This document shows, one piece after another, positions 2,741 to 20,100 of a stretch of 64,000 bases of DNA. The first letter of the stretch is position 1. Each line of letters begins with the position of its first letter. The position numbers and the translations under genes are program-made. The notes below the pieces were generated by a model. The model did no database searches, was not told the DNA's origin, and saw nothing but the letters and a program-made list of their open reading frames with translations. Source of the DNA: Alphaproteobacteria bacterium (GTDB lineage Bacteria; Pseudomonadota; Alphaproteobacteria; SHVP01). The DNA lies in contig JAYOEZ010000005.1 of assembly GCA_038116985.1 (NCBI GenBank), forward strand, positions 12,758-76,757. The letters run 5' to 3'.

Positions 2741-3654
2741 GTCACGGGCCCCTTGGGCACGCGACGTGTCGTGGTCGCGAGATAAATGCCGAGGAAAACG
2801 AGAAGGACGCCCGCGTGATAGGGCTGCACCGATTCGCCGAGGGCCACGATCGCCAGCGTGCCGCCGAAGACAGGATTCAGGTAGGTGAACTGACTGGCGA
2901 TGTTGGCGCCGACCATCGACACGCCGCGCGCCCACATGATGTAGGAAAACACCGAGGAGAACGCCGCAAGATAGAGGATGCCGACCACATTTGGCAGGGA
3001 GACGACCATGCGGCCGCCCGACGCGACCTCCCACAGGTAGACCGGCAGCAACATGACGATGCCGAGGATGACGATGGCGAGCAGCAAACCCTCCGGTCTG
3101 ATTCCGGGTGGCAGGCGGCCAAGCAGAATCGAATAGCCGGCCCAGCAGAACACCGCACAGAAGACCAACAGGTCGCCCTTGTTGAGCGACAGCGTCGCCA
3201 GGCTGCCGAAATCGCCGCGCGCGATGATCACGAGTACGCCGAGAAATCCGAAAACGAGCCCTACGATCAGCCGCGTACTCGCGCCCTCGCGCAGCAACAG
3301 CCACGACAACGTCACGGTGACGACGGGAATGACCGCGAGGATCAGTGTCGCGTTCAGCGCGATGGTGTGCTGCACGCCGACGTAGATGAGCGTGTTGAAG
3401 GCGGCGATGGCGATGGCCCCGAGGGCGAGGACGATGCGCCATTGCTGCCGCAGCATTGCCCGTTGCGCGATCATGGGACGCAATCCGAGCGGCAGCAGCA
3501 TCACGAAGGCGGCGATCCAGCGCCAGAACGACAGCGCGACCGGCGGCACCTCGCCCACGGTGGCACGCGCCACCACGACGTTGCCGGCTCCCGACAGCAT
3601 AACCAGCGTCAGCAGGACATAAGGGTTGAAGAAGATGGCGAGAGCGCGCTGCAC
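2737..3654 (-). CDS. DMT/EamA family transporter (copy 2)
   Basis: PPVALSFWRW, GDLLVF, YLNPVFG; GTG start at 3654 inferred. Confidence 0.88.
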   Translation of the reverse strand: MQRALAIFFNPYVLLTLVMLSGAGNVVVARATVGEVPPVALSFWRWIAAFVMLLPLGLRPMIAQRAMLRQQWRIVLALGAIAIAAFNTLIYVGVQHTIALNATLILAVIPVVTVTLSWLLLREGASTRLIVGLVFGFLGVLVIIARGDFGSLATLSLNKGDLLVFCAVFCWAGYSILLGRLPPGIRPEGLLLAIVILGIVMLLPVYLWEVASGGRMVVSLPNVVGILYLAAFSSVFSYIMWARGVSMVGANIASQFTYLNPVFGGTLAIVALGESVQPYHAGVLLVFLGIYLATTTRRVPKGPVT

Positions 3655-3662
3655 GATCGACC

Positions 3663-4568
3663 TCAGGCGCGCCGCTGCGAGGTCGCGAGCGCGATACCGC
3701 CGAAGATCAGGACGATCCCTGCAGCGTGATAGCCGCGAAAGGCTTCGCCGAGAAAGGCGACCGCCATCAGGCTGGAGAAGATCGGCGTGAGGTAGACGAA
3801 CTGAGTCGCCGTGCGCACGCCGATGGAGCCGACAGCCCAGTTGTACATGGTGAACGAAACCGCGGTCGCCATGACGCCGACATAGAGGATCGCGCTGACC
3901 GCCGATGCGGTCGGTGCGAAGCCGATCCCGCGGCTCAGTTCCCAGGTATAGAACGGCGCGATGGCGGCGAGCGCGACGACGTTGATCGCGAACATGAAGC
4001 CGACAGGGTTCAGCCCCTTGGCAAGGTCGCGCAGCAGCATGGAGTAGAAGACAAAGCCGGCGGTTGCGATCAGCATCATGAGATCGCCGGGGACCAACGA
4101 CAGGTGAAGCAACACGTCGATATCGCCGCGCACGACCGTCACGACCACACCAAGAAACCCCACGACCAATCCAAGGAACAGGCGCAGGCCAACACCCTCG
4201 CGATGAAACACACCGGTCAGCGCCACCACCGCAACGGGCGCGGTGGTGATGATGAGGGACGCGTTGATCGCCGTGGTCGTCTGGACGCCGAGATAAAGGA
4301 ATCCGTTGTAGACGGCGATCCCGAACGTCCCCATCGCCAGGATGCGCAACCACTGGCCGGTATATTGGTCGCGCTGGCGCCAGAGCGGCGGCAGTCCGAA
4401 CGGGATCATCACGACGACCGCGGCGACGAAGCGCCAGAAGGTCAGCGCGATCGGCGGCACCTCGGCGATCACTGCGCGACCCACGACGGGATTTGCCGCG
4501 GCAATGGCCATGGCCAGCGTCAACACGGCGATGGCCCAAGGGCGGCTGATCGCGGCCCGATCCAACAT
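3663..4568 (-). CDS. DMT/EamA family transporter (copy 1)
   Basis: PPIALTFWRF, GDLMML, YLTPIFS, LGE motifs. Confidence 0.9.
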   Translation of the reverse strand: MLDRAAISRPWAIAVLTLAMAIAAANPVVGRAVIAEVPPIALTFWRFVAAVVVMIPFGLPPLWRQRDQYTGQWLRILAMGTFGIAVYNGFLYLGVQTTTAINASLIITTAPVAVVALTGVFHREGVGLRLFLGLVVGFLGVVVTVVRGDIDVLLHLSLVPGDLMMLIATAGFVFYSMLLRDLAKGLNPVGFMFAINVVALAAIAPFYTWELSRGIGFAPTASAVSAILYVGVMATAVSFTMYNWAVGSIGVRTATQFVYLTPIFSSLMAVAFLGEAFRGYHAAGIVLIFGGIALATSQRRA

Positions 4569-14079: not shown

Positions 14080-14757
14080 TCAGCTCCCGAACAGCAGTTC
14101 GTGGTTCATGCCGAGGAAGGCTGTGATCGCGGCAAACACCCAGATGCCGATGACGAAAGGCACCGCGTGGTTCAGCGACCGCGTCATCTGGCCCTCGACC
14201 TCGGGCGAGGAGCCTTCGCTCATCAGCCTGGCAAAGGCCGAGCCGAACGGCGTGAAGGTCACGCGGATGCCGACCCCGCAGCACACGGCGCCCGCGAACA
14301 GCAGGATCTTGATCGGCAGCCATTCGGTTTCGTAGGGACCGGCCCCGGCGAGCGAGGTGATCGCCGGGATCGCCAGCGCAAGAATGAAGGCATAGCGCAG
14401 ATAGAGATCGAGCCGGGTCAGCCGCTTCGCCGCGTCGGTGCCTTCGCGGTGGTGAATCTGCCAGACCATGTAGACCCACGCCGCGGCGGCGATCCACACG
14501 ATGTAGAGCCAGATACCGTCGATCGGCGAGTAGCCGAGGTTCGCCGCGAGCGTCGCGCCGACCGGGAAGGTGAGAATCAGCATGTAGCGCGGAATCATGT
14601 CGATCCACGCCAGCACCTTGAGCAGCGTCGCGCGCGTCTGCGGACTGTACTTCGGATTGACCACAAGGCGCGCCGAGTAGAACACGCCAAGGTCGGCGCC
14701 GACCCAGTAAACGAACGTGATGACGTGCAACAGCTTGAAGAGGTCCTGCCATTCCAT
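14080..14757 (-). CDS. Uncharacterised multi-pass membrane protein (paralog 3 of 3; HemJ/CopD/DUF2269-like motifs)
   Basis: HVITFVYWVGADLGVFY, WLPIK, CGVGIR, EGSSPE shared with two neighbours. Confidence 0.85.
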   Translation of the reverse strand: MEWQDLFKLLHVITFVYWVGADLGVFYSARLVVNPKYSPQTRATLLKVLAWIDMIPRYMLILTFPVGATLAANLGYSPIDGIWLYIVWIAAAAWVYMVWQIHHREGTDAAKRLTRLDLYLRYAFILALAIPAITSLAGAGPYETEWLPIKILLFAGAVCCGVGIRVTFTPFGSAFARLMSEGSSPEVEGQMTRSLNHAVPFVIGIWVFAAITAFLGMNHELLFGS

Positions 14758-14766
14758 CGCCGCCTC

Positions 14767-15435
14767 CTACAGGTTCGGTTGGGCGATGCCGAGCAGCGAC
14801 ATCACGACGAGGCCGGCCCAGAGGGACAGCACCCAGGGTTTCACGCGAATCACAGGCACCCGCAGCGCCGCTTCGGTTTCGGGCGTCGAGCCTTCCGCCA
14901 TGAAGCGACCGAAGGCCATGCCGAAATTGGCGAAGGTAAAGCGGATGCCAAGGCCGCAGACCAGGATGAAGGCGAACAGAAGCACCTTCAGTGCGAGCCA
15001 GTTCGAGGCGAACGGTTCGCCGTTGGCGAACGAGGCGATGGCGGCGATTGTCAGCACCGCGATCAGCACGATGCGGATCCAAAGATCGATGTTCGAATAG
15101 GTCTTGCCCAGGGGCGTGCCGCGCTGCGAGGCGGCGCCGACCGAGATCAGGAGCCAGATGCCCGCAAGAGCCCAAGGCAACGCGAGCCAGCCGCCGTCGA
15201 TCGGCGAAAGACCCTTGCCCGCCGCCAGCATCAAGCCAACCGGCAGCATCATGATCGAGGCAACCGACGGGAAGAAGTTGACGAAGCTGAGTACACGCAC
15301 GATGGCGCCGCGGGTCTCCGGCGAATTCTCGGGTTTGATGATCTGCAGCGACGAATAGAAGACGCTGATGTCCGCGCCCAGCCAGTAAACCAGCAGGACG
15401 ACGTGGACCATGATCCAGAGGGTTTGTGGGTCCAT
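14767..15435 (-). CDS. Uncharacterised multi-pass membrane protein (paralog 2 of 3)
   Basis: HVVLLVYWLGADISVFY, WLALK, CGLGIR, EGSTPE. Confidence 0.85.
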   Translation of the reverse strand: MDPQTLWIMVHVVLLVYWLGADISVFYSSLQIIKPENSPETRGAIVRVLSFVNFFPSVASIMMLPVGLMLAAGKGLSPIDGGWLALPWALAGIWLLISVGAASQRGTPLGKTYSNIDLWIRIVLIAVLTIAAIASFANGEPFASNWLALKVLLFAFILVCGLGIRFTFANFGMAFGRFMAEGSTPETEAALRVPVIRVKPWVLSLWAGLVVMSLLGIAQPNL

Positions 15436-15517
15436 GACGATTGGGTCCTTCAGGGGGCTCGCAAGGTTGGGGCCGCACGAATGCTAGCGGGCGGCCATGA
15501 CACGGTCCAACGAGCGG

Positions 15518-16195
15518 TTAGAATCCGGGCTTCCAGGTGCCGATGAACGCGGCCAGCGCGACCAGCACCCAGATGCCCTTGACGAAATTGCGCGAACGCT
15601 TGGCGGCAGCATTGAGCCTGGCCTCGCGCTCGGGCGTGGAGCCCTCTGCCTTGATCTCGGCGAAGGCCTCGACGTAGGGCTTGATCGACACGCGGATGCC
15701 GATGCCGCAGCCGATCGTGGCGGCGAAGATCAACAGCTTGAGTGCGACGAAGTTCTGGGTGATGGGCTCGTTCTCGATGAACGACCAGATTGCGATGACG
15801 ACGAAGGTGATCATCAACGCCCAGCGCAAACGCAGATCGAACTTGGCCCAGGGCGCCTTTTTTGCAGCGTCCTTTTCGAGGTGCAGCCACCACACCAGCA
15901 CCAACCATGCCGCGCCGAAAATCCAAAAGGCGATAAGCCAGGTCGACGAAATGGTCAGATAGCCGTGGATCGCAGCGACCGAGAACCCGGTCGGGACCAT
16001 GAGCACCATCGTCGTCTTGGGCGCCATGTCGATGTCGCCGGTGATGCGCGCGAGCAGGGTGCGCGTCGGCACGTCGTACTTGGGATTGTTGCGGAAGAAG
16101 CTCGTGTAGAAGACGCCGATGTCGCCGCCGAGCCAGTAGACGAACAACAGCAAGTGCACCCAGATGATCAGGCTTTGCCAGAAATCGAGATCCAT
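15518..16195 (-). CDS. Uncharacterised multi-pass membrane protein (paralog 1 of 3)
   Basis: HLLLFVYWLGGDIGVFY, FVALK, CGIGIR, EGSTPE; GGAGG RBS before ATG 16195. Confidence 0.85.
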   Translation of the reverse strand: MDLDFWQSLIIWVHLLLFVYWLGGDIGVFYTSFFRNNPKYDVPTRTLLARITGDIDMAPKTTMVLMVPTGFSVAAIHGYLTISSTWLIAFWIFGAAWLVLVWWLHLEKDAAKKAPWAKFDLRLRWALMITFVVIAIWSFIENEPITQNFVALKLLIFAATIGCGIGIRVSIKPYVEAFAEIKAEGSTPEREARLNAAAKRSRNFVKGIWVLVALAAFIGTWKPGF

Positions 16196-16263: not shown

Positions 16264-17148
16264 TTACGACCGCTGCGCGAGTCGGCGGTAGCTGAGCGCT
16301 TCTGGGATGTGCAGGCGGCGGACGGTATCGGCGCCGTCCAGGTCGGCCAGCGTGCGCGCAACGCGCAGCACGCGGTGGTAGGCCCGCGCCGAGAGCTTCA
16401 TGGCGTCGACCGCGTCGGAAAGGAGTTGCGCGCCCGGGGCGTCGGGGGATGCGACCTGCATCAGCAGGTCGCCGTCGGCCTCGGCGTTGGTGCGCACGAT
16501 GCGGCCGTTGACGTGACCCTTGTAGCGTTCCGTCTGCAGCGTGCGGGCCGCGGCGACGCGCGCGGCGACCTCGGCCGAGCCTTCCGCCGGCGGCGGCAGC
16601 GACAGATCGGCCGCGACGACGGGCGGCACCTCGATATGCAGGTCGATGCGGTCGAACATCGGGCCGGAGATGCGCGCCTGATAGGCGCCAGCGCAATGGG
16701 GCGCGCGGTTGCAGGCGAGACCGGCGTCGCCCAGGTGGCCGCAGCGGCACGGATTCATCGCCGCGACGAGTTGCACGCGCGCCGGATAGGTCACGTGCGT
16801 GTTGGCGCGTGCGATGGTGACGCTGCCGGTCTCCAGCGGCTGGCGCAGCGATTCCAGAACCTGGCCGTTGAACTCGGGCAACTCGTCTAGGAACAGCACG
16901 CCGAGGTGGGCGAGCGTGACCTCGCCCGGGCGCGCCTTGGTGCCGCCGCCGACCATCGCGGGCTGCGAGGCGTTGTGGTGAGGATCGCGAAACGGGCGGC
17001 GGCGTGTGAGGCGGCCGTCCTTGATGAGGCCTGCGACCGAGGCGACCATCGACACCTCCAGCGTTTCGCGTGCGTCCAGGGGCGGCAGCAGGCCGGGCAG
17101 CCGCGCCGCCAGCATCGACTTGCCCGAGCCGGGTGGGCCGGTCATCAG
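16264..17148 (-). pseudogene. comM: comM/yifB Mg-chelatase-like AAA+ ATPase, 3' half (interrupted gene)
   Basis: LMTGPPGSGKS Walker A, RPFRDPHH, LFLDELPEF, AAMNPCRCG, RVARTLADL. Confidence 0.92.
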
Positions 17149-17427
17149 CCCGTGGTGGTCGTCAAGACCCCTGACGACGCCCCCTAGCGAGGCAGGCGGC
17201 CAAAAACAGATACGAGGCGGCTTTCGGAAGAGAAGACGCTGCAACGATCATGTTCGTCTTCCGTCTGAGGTGCGGTAGTTCGTCTGACGCGACTAGACCT
17301 CCTGGCTTCCCGCCCCCGCCCGGTCTCACAACTCACCAAAAGGGGCATTTCAGGAACGCCGCGCCGAGCTTCGAAAGCAATTTGCCAAGGTACTTTCTTC
17401 AGCGAACGGCGTCGGACCATGAAAGGG

Positions 17428-17868
17428 CTAGTCCTCTTCGGGGCCCTCCGTTTCCACTAATTTCTCGAGAGTTACGTGCGCTGCACTAGCTTGCTTGCAG
17501 AGCTTCAGGACTTGGCGGCTAGCAGGATTGGCCACGACAACGACCAACTTCTTCACCTTTGCCTCCGCAACAACCCAATAGTCGCTTGTGTCATAGGACT
17601 TCGCGAACAGCGAGGTCGTGTACTCCTGCGAAAACTTGGTTGCGGTCATCCACACCTTGTCAGTTGAAGGAAGGCGGGCCTCTTTGAAAGGGCTAATCCT
17701 TGCAAACGTCTCTGGTGAAACGTCTTTCACACGGTCCCAGACATCAAACGGTATTAGCAGGCGGCCACTTTCGAGGAGGCCAATAATGGTGTCCCAGACA
17801 ATGTTCGAAGCACCGGCGAGCGACAGCAGTGTCGTCGCATCGATGACGTATTTCTGAGACTTGCTCAC
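17428..17868 (-). CDS. DUF4411-like PIN-fold protein
   Basis: YVID N-terminal strand, W...G.L, D-x-W-VVA, late Cys; GTGA coupling to upstream peptidase. Confidence 0.7.
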   Translation of the reverse strand: MSKSQKYVIDATTLLSLAGASNIVWDTIIGLLESGRLLIPFDVWDRVKDVSPETFARISPFKEARLPSTDKVWMTATKFSQEYTTSLFAKSYDTSDYWVVAEAKVKKLVVVVANPASRQVLKLCKQASAAHVTLEKLVETEGPEED

Positions 17869-19022
17869 CTGTCCCGCATTTTGTCGATGCGGTTTTCCAT
17901 GGCCGTGCGCACTTCGTTGGCTTGATCAGGCTTGAGCTTCGTCAGACTGAACAGCTGTAACGGGGTGAGCAGCCCGCGATCCGCCGCAACTAGGGCGGCA
18001 TTTGCGGCAAATACCCCAAGCTGTGCGAGCTTTCGATCTGCAGCAGAAGACCGACCAAAGCGCGGCGGTTCTGGGAACTGGCCATCCGAGAACTGAGAAA
18101 TCCAATCGCTTCGAAAACCATCGTCGACGAACGACAGTTGTTCGAGGCGGATCGCAAGCGCGTCCTGAGTCACCTGCAAGCGCTCAGCCATCTTAGCTAA
18201 TGCGGTGTTCCGTCGAGCGCGTATCCGCACATCAGCAGTGAAAACCGCTTTGACAAGATCGCTCGGCATCAAGAAGGACGCGGCAAAGGCGTTACAGAAG
18301 ACTTCGGTGCGGTTCAGCGATCGAGTGAAGTCGGAAATGCCCGTTTGCCTCAGCAGGACGTGGCCGAGCTCGTGGACAAGCGTAAACGCTCGTGCGCCGC
18401 CTGAGTGTTCTTGGGTGTTAAAGACGATTGTAGGAGGTTGTTCAGGCTCGAAGAGACAGAACCCTCGGCTATCCTCTAGGGGATAGCTACGGGCAAGAAC
18501 AACGATGCCCCGCCTTTCGATCTCGTAGCGTAGAAGCTGAAGAAAATTTGGTGCACCTCGCCCGATCTGGTCATCCGTCGTGATGCCAAGCAGCTTCCTA
18601 ATCGATGAGGCGGCCTCAGCGGGATCCTGCTCCAGAGACAAATCCGGGAGGTTCTCGACTACCCACGAGGTGAGGATGTCTGGGTCATCCTCGATTAGTT
18701 CTGCTAGAGCCGCTTGAAGGCGCTTGGCCTCAAAGATTGCCTTCGTGGCCTTGGGACCAAGTTTCGCCGGTGCACCCCTCCTAGTTCGAAAATCGGGGAT
18801 GCTAAGCAGAGCTTCGGGCGGGGTCTGCGTGTAACCAAAAACCAGCGATGGAACGGAAAGGACATCTGCGAACTTTTTTACTAGACCGTAGGGAGGCGGC
18901 TCATCATTGCGCTCAATGCGCTGGGGCTCAGCCTTTACCAACTTGGCAAGCCCACTGATGCTAAACCCTCGGTTCTCCCGAAGCTCCTTGAGGACAGTTC
19001 CGTTGATGTTGACTGTGGTCAT
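17865..19022 (-). CDS. XRE-HTH + ImmA/IrrE family zinc metallopeptidase (also C-terminal part of a 725-aa fusion ORF)
   Basis: INGTVLKELRENRGFS HTH, PDFR linker, RAFTLVHELGH (HExxH), EVFCNAFAASFLMP. Confidence 0.88.
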   Translation of the reverse strand: MTTVNINGTVLKELRENRGFSISGLAKLVKAEPQRIERNDEPPPYGLVKKFADVLSVPSLVFGYTQTPPEALLSIPDFRTRRGAPAKLGPKATKAIFEAKRLQAALAELIEDDPDILTSWVVENLPDLSLEQDPAEAASSIRKLLGITTDDQIGRGAPNFLQLLRYEIERRGIVVLARSYPLEDSRGFCLFEPEQPPTIVFNTQEHSGGARAFTLVHELGHVLLRQTGISDFTRSLNRTEVFCNAFAASFLMPSDLVKAVFTADVRIRARRNTALAKMAERLQVTQDALAIRLEQLSFVDDGFRSDWISQFSDGQFPEPPRFGRSSAADRKLAQLGVFAANAALVAADRGLLTPLQLFSLTKLKPDQANEVRTAMENRIDKMRDR

Positions 19023-20042
19023 GTCGCGGCCCCCATGTCTTTCCCCCACATAGGGGGCACCTCCACGTTTTCCCTTGGTCACGCGGGTCATCGTGGAGCC
19101 GCACTTCGGGCATTTGGCGAGCCCAGCGAGGATGCTTCGAACCTCTTTTCCAGAGTGACGGCCCCTTGCGGACCCGCGCACTGCGCTCAACGTTTGGACG
19201 GTCTCGTAGGTCTCAGGGTCAACAATGGCCGGGTAATAGCCGGTGACAGGCTCAAGCGGGAGGCGAGAACGCCGCGCACCATCGTACACCAACTCGTGGG
19301 GAACGAAGGTTCCGACAACGGCCGGATTTGACAGCAACCGAACCACTGAGGACCGGTGCCACCGCAATCCCGTACCAAACGTGGCGACGCACTGCCTATT
19401 TAGCCTTTCAACAATGGAGTGCGCCCCAGCGCCAGAACGAGCGAGGTCGAAGACCTTGCGGACCACGGCCGCTCGCTCCTCCAAGACACGCCACCGCTTC
19501 TTCGCAGATAGTTCGAGCCAAGCGGGTCCTCTAGCCGTTATTGGGCGCACGTGAGCCTCGCGACGCATTTTTGCCCACGCTGCTTTGAGGCGCCGTGACT
19601 TGGTCTCACTCTCCTCATTTGCACGCATGGAGACGATGAACGCTGTGAGAAACCCAATCGGATTGTCGAGGTCCGCCTCGGTATATCGCTTACCATCAAC
19701 AAGGGTGACAACGGTAATACCCTCGGCGCAGATGTTCTCGAGCCCCCTCATGGCATGCCGTGGAACCAGACGACTGAGCCGGTCCAAGCTTTCGACGAGT
19801 AGGAAAGACCCCCTGGGCACTAGCCCCTCGCGAACCGCTGCCAGGAAGTCTCCGAGCCGGCCGCTATCAGCATTGGCTCCTCTAAACGCCGACACGCCCA
19901 AATCTCTGAACGTGAGCGCCGTGTCCAAGTCAAGATCGTGCTTCCGCGCGTAATCTGCGGCGAGTTCGGTTTGCCTGCGGAAGGAGTCTCCCGACATCTG
20001 TTCGGGGGTCGAGAACCTAAGGTAGGAAAAGGCTTTCGCCAT
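19023..20042 (-). CDS. Large serine recombinase, C-terminally truncated and read through in frame into the HTH-peptidase
   Basis: YLRFST catalytic Ser, DLGVSAF, VESLDRLSR, EESETKSRR, YPAIVD, only first CxxC (CPKC) of the Zn ribbon; no stop before 19022. Confidence 0.88.
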
Positions 20043-20100
20043 GGCACGAAACTCCAAGTTTTGTTGCTGCTCTAGTGGCACCTAATGGGTCTCGAGTTCC

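Follow-up and report, generated by a model that had tools for sequence, protein, structure and literature searches.

What is the front of an integrase doing on the N-terminus of a peptidase? The question is raised by an uninterrupted open reading frame (ORF) of 725 amino acids (aa) in a 64,000-nucleotide (nt) stretch of an alphaproteobacterial genome (Alphaproteobacteria bacterium, GTDB lineage SHVP01; GenBank assembly GCA_038116985.1, contig JAYOEZ010000005.1, positions 12,758 to 76,757), which we call the window and whose own numbering is used throughout. In this ORF a large serine recombinase (LSR) runs into a protein with an XRE helix-turn-helix (HTH) and an M78 (ImmA/IrrE) peptidase. An earlier reading of the DNA, made from its letters alone (hereafter the sequence-only reading), had offered two options: an internal deletion that happened to stay in frame, or a genuine chimeric recombinase and hence a new system. 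Our results argue for the former, and we consider it very probable that the fusion is the product of a one-off deletion, preserved in the remnant of an LSR-borne island that had inserted into comM. The ORF is composed of the following parts:

20042..17865, minus strand: the whole fusion ORF, 725 aa, from ATG 20042 to TGA 17867-17865.
19047..20042, minus strand: fusion aa 1-332, an LSR fragment with the catalytic domain, the alpha-E helix, the recombinase domain and the first half of the zinc ribbon (Pfam and homologue alignment).
19023..19046, minus strand: the eight junction codons GERHGGRD, interpreted as what used to be the 5' leader of the antitoxin gene (they precede the column in which stand-alone relatives start).
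17865..19022, minus strand: fusion aa 341-725 plus stop, a complete RmrA-like protein with XRE HTH and M78 (ImmA/IrrE) zinc peptidase (stand-alone relatives, PADLOC and fold).

The stop-free frame claimed by the sequence-only reading is confirmed and lies on the minus strand, and the domain order it had proposed (serine recombinase, half a zinc ribbon, XRE HTH, M78 peptidase) is borne out by Pfam. A GTG at 20081 offers an alternative start, giving 738 aa; ATG 20042 is the start found in relatives by alignment. From this ATG, the Resolvase family (PF00239) matches aa 4-162 (E 1.6e-16), with Y7, R9, S11 and the D87-R88-x-S90-R91 motif in columns invariant across 10 aligned sequences, and is followed by the Recombinase family (PF07508) over aa 188-284 (E 1.2e-12). 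Zn_ribbon_recom then covers aa 304-331 through positions 1-26 only of its 58-position profile, at 25.0 bits against a cut-off of 25.3, and HTH_31 covers aa 348-398 at 22.8 bits against a cut-off of 27. Finally, Peptidase_M78 (PF06114) matches aa 509-633 (E 1.3e-16), and the H, E and H of its HELGH motif, at aa 557, are invariant in 40 sequences. These domain matches, held together by a 2.2-kb open frame, are far beyond chance.

Where, then, does one protein give way to the other? The fusion was aligned with nine LSRs, to which it is 41-47% identical over the full alignment and 53-59% in local matches, and the likeness stops after ...CPKCGSTMTRVTKGKRGGAPYV(332), i.e. at V332, between two Cys pairs. 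Past this point all nine relatives carry on into the second Cys pair (...LVCTKAKAGAGCxYRAV) and then ~150 further residues; LSR relatives of 500-590 aa have ~170-250 residues beyond the break. In the fusion the four-Cys zinc ribbon is incomplete, with C311 and C314 the sole Cys of its remnant, and the sequence of the coiled coil and the C-terminal tail is absent, in agreement with the earlier claim that the second Cys pair and the coiled coil are missing. A frame-shifted continuation of the integrase past V332 was also considered, and was dropped when the other two frames of the leader showed, by eye, no convincing likeness to ...CTKAKAGAGC.... Judging from the alignment, the join lies within a folded domain, where it cuts the zinc site in half, and not at a domain boundary. 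This is a first point against the fusion as an evolved chimeric recombinase, in which the XRE HTH would have replaced recognition by the zinc ribbon and coiled coil, and the M78 part would gate recombination on phage or DNA damage.

The eight codons that follow the break provide a second. M341 (19022) falls exactly in the start-Met column of five of the eight stand-alone HTH-M78 relatives, and the junction codons lie outside those proteins. Within the 20 nt examined, a G-run resembling a Shine-Dalgarno site stands 7 nt 5' of ATG 19022, and the duplex it would form with the anti-Shine-Dalgarno (a generic string, which we take to apply here) comes to -8.4 kcal/mol, the strongest of four starts tested and in the top 7% of 2,158 ORF windows. 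Because M341 occupies the start column and is preceded by this Shine-Dalgarno-like site, the linker resembles a 5' leader kept from the downstream gene; an evolved chimera sits poorly with a linker of this origin, in which the start signals of the antitoxin (Shine-Dalgarno site and ATG) are untouched.

What kind of protein begins at M341? The C half has 37 stand-alone relatives of 315-411 aa, the best four of which (380-411 aa) cover 94-98% of it at 30-34% identity. Thirteen RmrA models of PADLOC match it, the best at E 2.4e-19 over aa 351-641, and so does the capP model; the NCBIfam model for the spr1629-family repressor/antitoxin (NF052239) reaches 55 bits against a cut-off of 335, which marks a distant relative only. 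PDB entry 9vzy_A, a 393-aa HTH protein, matches fusion aa 348-639 (E 2e-15). Folded alone with 39 relatives, the C half gives a model with a predicted local distance difference test score (pLDDT) of 88.3 and a predicted template-modelling score (pTM) of 0.88, whose best fold matches are CapP (7t5t) and IrrE (3dte), with 7t5u among the fold matches too. Directly downstream lies a further gene:

17428..17868, minus strand: a putative toxin ORF of 146 aa, DUF4411/PIN-like (PF14367 below cut-off, Atlas and alignment).

The GTG start of this ORF overlaps the TGA of the fusion by 4 bases in the same orientation. The downstream PIN gene of the sequence-only reading is this 146-aa ORF, which we call DUF4411-like: PF14367 (DUF4411) stays below its cut-off, at 20.8 bits against 23.5 (E 3.5e-4), and the nearest Atlas clusters are DUF4411/PIN (0.91, with 155 shared features). 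NCBIfam and PADLOC returned nothing for it, and among 400 sampled genomes of the phylum only its own genome matched. In both of the relatives' loci examined (L005 and L007), a DUF4411 gene (PF14367, E 1.8e-43 / 3.3e-16) comes after a stand-alone HTH-M78 gene of 382 or 384 aa; in L005 its start overlaps the stop of the HTH-M78 gene. D10, E82 and D96 are invariant among the 146-aa protein and these two true DUF4411 proteins, an alignment of two relatives only, both from loci of the HTH-M78 relatives. In the literature, DUF4411.1 genes are described downstream of fused HTH-DUF955 genes (PMC5499597), and RosmerTA as a Zn-peptidase antitoxin that occurs with varied toxins in anti-phage defence (preprint 10.1101/2022.05.11.491447, PMC10440598).

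Modelled as a complex, the C half and the 146-aa protein score 0.78, against 0.08 for the best control; among the pairs that calibrate this score, 58 of 80 solved complexes get as far, as do 2 of 110 mismatched pairs, counts that are only roughly valid here, where the model was built on small alignments of our own. At least 89% of contacts are shared between runs, the partner has a pLDDT of at least 88, and the model supports binding of the 146-aa protein by the C half. Because the modelled interface takes in fusion residues 342-345, the very start of the antitoxin, a 42-kDa form initiated internally would be expected to matter. By sequence and by model, the C half and the 146-aa ORF together are a RosmerTA-like toxin-antitoxin module with a putative toxin. 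A C half that appears to be a complete member of a family working with a downstream toxin is a third argument against an evolved chimera. In L005, the HTH-M78/DUF4411 pair is followed by an ORF (3298-3819, genome G029) whose N-terminus resembles, by eye, that of a type I restriction R subunit.

Does the fusion exist anywhere else? Our large protein searches list only the best 120 or 150 matches. Among 5.8 billion proteins, the whole fusion as query matched 582 at E<=0.001 out of 8,000 candidates scored; all 119 listed non-self matches are LSRs of 402-591 aa, which cover 42-56% of the query at no more than 59% identity, and PF06114 is found in none of them. HMMER over 1.84 billion representatives gave 15,003 matches, the best 150 of which are single stretches ending at query aa 381 or before, and the C half, searched against proteins of 675-2000 aa, found only the fusion itself. 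Coverage of 80% of the query was reached in none of 117 matching plasmid records and none of 176 matching phage records, and no match ran across both halves in 60 relatives' genomes. Any match to the fusion was lacking in all seven same-genus and all 16 same-family genomes, the fusion is single-copy in its own assembly, and a whole-fusion Atlas search gave no usable match. Nor did the literature searched, supplements lying outside its scope, hold a description of a serine recombinase-Peptidase_M78 fusion. The sequence-only reading had held that a fusion present in no other genome, with relatives that carry a full-length integrase and a separate peptidase gene, would favour a one-off deletion; in the protein, plasmid, phage and relatives' genome searches no second copy appeared, and the relatives of each half are stand-alone proteins.

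Could the recombinase nevertheless still work, in a new guise? Its frame is open, and its catalytic and recombinase domains are undecayed: of 74 columns with a conservation of 95% or more in 115 homologues the LSR fragment keeps 73, the same as intact relatives do (median 0.987). In the model of the whole fusion, all but two of the lower-scoring ten-residue blocks over aa 1-290 aside, pLDDT is 84-98 for most of this part; block means drop to 52-76 over aa 290-345, and aa 320-325 fall below 50. This fold was computed on a mixed alignment and is used for aa 1-345 only; the C half is poor in it (pLDDT 27-81) because integrase tails were aligned onto that half. A catalytic domain and a C-terminal HTH do occur together in small serine recombinases, which also counts for a chimera. 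So does the weak, promiscuous activity kept by an integrase that lacks the coiled coil alone (PMC5499577). The same source describes the coiled coil as embedded in the zinc ribbon domain and required for efficient attP x attB recombination. The phiC31 integrase needs its four-Cys zinc motif both to be active and to bind with high affinity; mutants in the Cys residues unfold, and only weak DNA binding is left in a truncated form that lacks the motif (PMC3152356). By analogy with these proteins, the recombinase function of the fusion has presumably been lost. An evolved chimera would moreover be known from one occurrence, with no second fusion in any search made, and would have nothing else to move in its insert. 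The genuine chimeric recombinase that had been proposed as the second option thus gained no support, and we regard it as very unlikely.

If the fusion is instead a deletion product, what is left of the element that was deleted? The fusion and the putative toxin gene lie in a short insert that splits comM, also known as yifB:

20110..20820, minus strand: comM/yifB 5' part, with the ChlI domain (PF13541, E 8.7e-36) and the first ~27 Mg_chelatase positions (PF01078 positions 1-27).
20108..20109, minus strand: attL crossover, with CT as the likeliest core dinucleotide in the comM sense (both junctions against intact comM of relatives).
20043..20107, minus strand: insert-derived leader, from attL to the integrase ATG (GC content 0.51 over 20043-20103).
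17344..17360, minus strand: terminator-like hairpin and T-run, 3' of the DUF4411-like gene (consensus scan, pattern match only).
17147..17148, minus strand: attR crossover, with the same CT core (junctions against intact comM).
16264..17146, minus strand: comM 3' part from the Walker A motif GPPGSGKS on, including Mg_chelatase_C (PF01078 positions 22-204, E 4.3e-80; PF13335).

The comM 5' part reads as far as ...GGHNLLL, where an insert-derived TAG (20103-20101) closes its frame, and the 3' part resumes at ...MTGPPGSGKS, so that the gene is split at its Walker A codons; from core to core, attL and attR are 2,961 bp apart, which is the insert length. We infer CT as the core dinucleotide from the comparison of both junctions with intact comM. 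Guanine-plus-cytosine (GC) content drops from ~0.71 to ~0.56 across ~17150 to ~20150, and the three insert ORFs have 0.61-0.66 at third codon positions (GC3), where comM has 0.89. In same-genus genomes, to whose comM the 3' part is 78-88% identical, the gene is whole, with open frames of 508-601 aa in four and contiguous halves in five loci; no second PF01078 gene is present in the fusion's own assembly, which is 88.5% complete. A sigma-70-like promoter scan of 17000-21000 returned 0 sites, an uninformative result for an organism so GC-rich. As candidate att half-sites we dropped an inverted repeat (17191-17205 with 20114-20128), its arms being asymmetric about the crossover. Followed back into the insert, the comM 3' frame meets no stop for 26 codons, as far as a TTG at 17244 (17162-17244, minus strand), and a ComM form without the N-terminal domain is conceivable in principle.

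The relatives of the integrase give an idea of what such an island may hold. They abut a comM fragment in five of the six loci tested, and comM is split at the same Pfam positions (22-26) in four genomes, its parts lying 26.6 (G032), 41.0 (G049), 14.2 (G061) and 18.8 kb (G062) apart. The integrases of the three annotated islands (G032, G061 and G062) have 511-544 aa and a full zinc ribbon. The target is a common one: magnesium chelatase homologues are the target of 12.4% of predicted site-specific LSRs (PMC10083194), and the sr1WO recombinases of phage WO integrate into magnesium chelatase (PMC9203015). The 26.6-kb island of G032 (L024/L025, C1:2955500-2983500) encodes Fic/DOC, deaminases, DUF4238 and SRAP, and the 18.8-kb island of G062 (L027, C7:40800-60600) a Prim-Pol/D5 helicase and a dCTP-deaminase-like gene; both hold many ORFs without a Pfam family, and their cargo looks like that of defence islands, not of prophages. 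In the G049 island, of which only the region around the M78 match was examined, separate HTH (131 aa) and M78 (314 aa) genes stand beside Prok-E2/multiubiquitin genes (C16; L028 5077-8890), a pair that resembles the CapH/CapP regulators on a ubiquitin-like defence operon.

Was the ancestor of our insert of this size? It could have been minimal, an LSR gene with a toxin-antitoxin pair in ~3.5-4 kb, in which case the deletion took no more than the 3' end of the integrase and a short spacer. Room for such an ancestor is left by a deletion whose size is not measurable, and by the frequent proximity of integrase genes to HTH/ImmA regulators in mobile elements. However, the four related comM inserts measured span 14-41 kb, the one among them with an M78 gene (G049) has it as a gene of its own, next to a separate HTH gene and ~33 kb from the integrase, and in our insert the toxin-antitoxin module is at the att end opposite the integrase. 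A minimal ancestor is, to our mind, improbable, and a larger island remains our preferred source of the remnant.

All of this presupposes that the junction is real. The genome is a draft of 157 contigs, 88.5% complete, and an artefact of assembly or binning, or a sequencing error masking a stop or frameshift, would mean that the cell has two separate genes. Four estuary-metagenome runs (X1-X4) hold the stretch; all come from one study and are kept as per-run contigs, not raw reads, which, like the draft state of the genome, counts in favour of this explanation. Even so, contigs bridge 19022-19049 without mismatch in three of the four (X1 18777-20187, X2 18676-19306, X3 18856-19236), and contigs of X1 join the insert to comM at both ends, with attR spanned by one contig. 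No indels, joints or loose ends are reported in the per-run contigs across the junction, and a synonymous change at 18195 in X2 is the only variant seen; in X4, which says nothing either way, 19014-19168 is not covered by a contig. A repeat-driven false join would break contigs at the junction, not bridge it. The region 19020-19060, where the sequence-only reading had allowed for an assembly artefact, is thus crossed with 0 differences by the separate assemblies X1, X2 and X3. A false join at the junction is unlikely, and we give two separate genes in the cell next to no credence.

How might the deletion have come about, and what would it have left behind? We envisage an LSR-borne island inserted into comM, with an HTH-M78 antitoxin gene near the end opposite the integrase; of this island the 2,961-bp remnant would be all that remains. 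The deletion would have run from the zinc-ribbon codons after V332 to 24 nt upstream of the antitoxin start codon, taking at least ~0.55 kb (the missing 3' end of the integrase) and probably many kb, and the two ends would have been joined in frame by chance, such that integrase fragment, antitoxin leader and whole antitoxin became one 725-aa ORF. A recombinase without half of its zinc site and without the coiled coil should be incapable of att recognition and synapsis, and therefore the remnant would be stuck and comM would stay split. As the deletion would also have taken the antitoxin's own promoter, the pair would now be transcribed from the integrase leader or by read-through from comM, with the antitoxin produced as part of an ~80 kDa fusion and, in all probability, in a ~42 kDa form too, initiated at the retained Shine-Dalgarno site and ATG 19022. 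The element would accordingly be immobilised, with the peptidase-PIN module under the integrase promoter, as the in-frame internal deletion of the sequence-only reading had it. That option is supported by the break in mid-domain, the leader-like linker, the stand-alone relatives of the two halves, the single copy, and a length of 3 kb against the 14-41 kb of related islands.

The toxin-antitoxin pair may also explain, through addiction, why the remnant persists. Perhaps it did more, and the in-frame join was itself fixed by addiction after loss of the promoter, when no cell would have survived that ceased to produce antitoxin, the pair now locking in the disruption of comM; we think this doubtful, and still likelier than a working chimera. 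For the 725-aa protein to be the latter, its recombinase would have to be steered by the XRE HTH/M78 part, or the regulation of its antitoxin altered by an oligomerising, DNA-binding integrase fragment, and either would surprise us greatly.

Several points weigh against the deletion reading and should be set beside the evidence for it. No parent element is at hand: exact 30-mers from each side of the junction had 0 matches in metagenome_contigs, and the closest integrase relative is only 59% identical among the matches listed, which is why the deletion is deduced from anatomy and not seen. Its size is unmeasurable, and the ancestral element may have been small. A very distant fusion, weak in both halves, would escape lists of the best 120 or 150 matches. 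The single study behind all four runs possibly includes the source sample, and its contigs are not an independent replication. Finally, going by its sequence, the undecayed integrase fragment fits a recent deletion and also continued selection.

The surroundings of the split gene hold two further features. A DUF1848 gene adjoining comM (20827-21696, plus strand) is matched by PF08902 at both ends in Pfam and contains an in-frame TAA (21112-21114) and TGA (21346-21348) without a frameshift; the aligned parts in three same-genus loci are stop-free, and one of these (L012) has R at the position of the second stop. This is either a pseudogene with two nonsense changes or a case of sequencing errors. 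On the other side of comM, three tandem paralogous ORFs of 222-225 aa (14080-16189, minus strand) share an N-terminal ...VYWxGxDxxVFY motif and look membrane-bound, with no Pfam match at E<=1e-3.

How does the locus compare with systems already described? It shares with the LSR islands and prophages that target comM/yifB the split at Walker A, the att-like junctions, the integrase adjacent to a junction and the foreign GC content; here, however, there are 2,961 bp only, a toxin-antitoxin pair is the sole cargo, and the integrase has neither the second half of the zinc ribbon nor the coiled coil. With RosmerTA, and with the 'three-component' arrangement of HTH-DUF955 and DUF4411, it shares an XRE HTH and an M78 HExxH in one unit of ~385 aa, matches to RmrA models, and a small toxin gene with an overlapping start. 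The likeness to RosmerTA is one of sequence and model, and in our case the antitoxin stands behind 340 foreign residues and the toxin reaches DUF4411 only below the Pfam cut-off.

Like the fusion, ImmR/ImmA and CapH/CapP combine an M78 fold with an XRE HTH, a pairing met with in mobile elements as well as in defence operons. In the conjugative transposon of Bacillus subtilis, cleavage of ImmR by ImmA permits expression of the integrase (PMC10440598). In those systems, however, repressor and peptidase are separate proteins that control neighbouring genes, whereas here they form a single protein, and this analysis saw nothing of a control of the recombinase by its HTH-M78 part. The nearest parallels to the integrase fragment are the phiC31 hInt V371S-UGA without the zinc finger (PMC3152356) and the Listeria LI Int-deltaCC (PMC5499577), which likewise keep the catalytic and recombinase domains and lose C-terminal parts for DNA recognition. 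Those are laboratory constructs, whereas this is a natural truncation in which an unrelated protein has replaced the part that was lost.

The fusion locus is, then, a decayed member of two known kinds, a comM-targeting LSR island and a RosmerTA-like HTH-M78/DUF4411 pair, and its 'new architecture' is most likely an accident. Were the fusion active, it would represent a new way to aim or gate a serine recombinase, and no finding here suggests such activity. The case carries a caution for the reading of unusual proteins: where a multi-domain architecture has been met a single time, its joint falls within a folded domain and the leader of the downstream gene serves as linker, these are the marks of a deletion, not those of a new system. 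At the same time it offers a natural example of an LSR island decaying at the comM hotspot, with a RosmerTA-like pair as its last cargo and a competence gene left permanently split.

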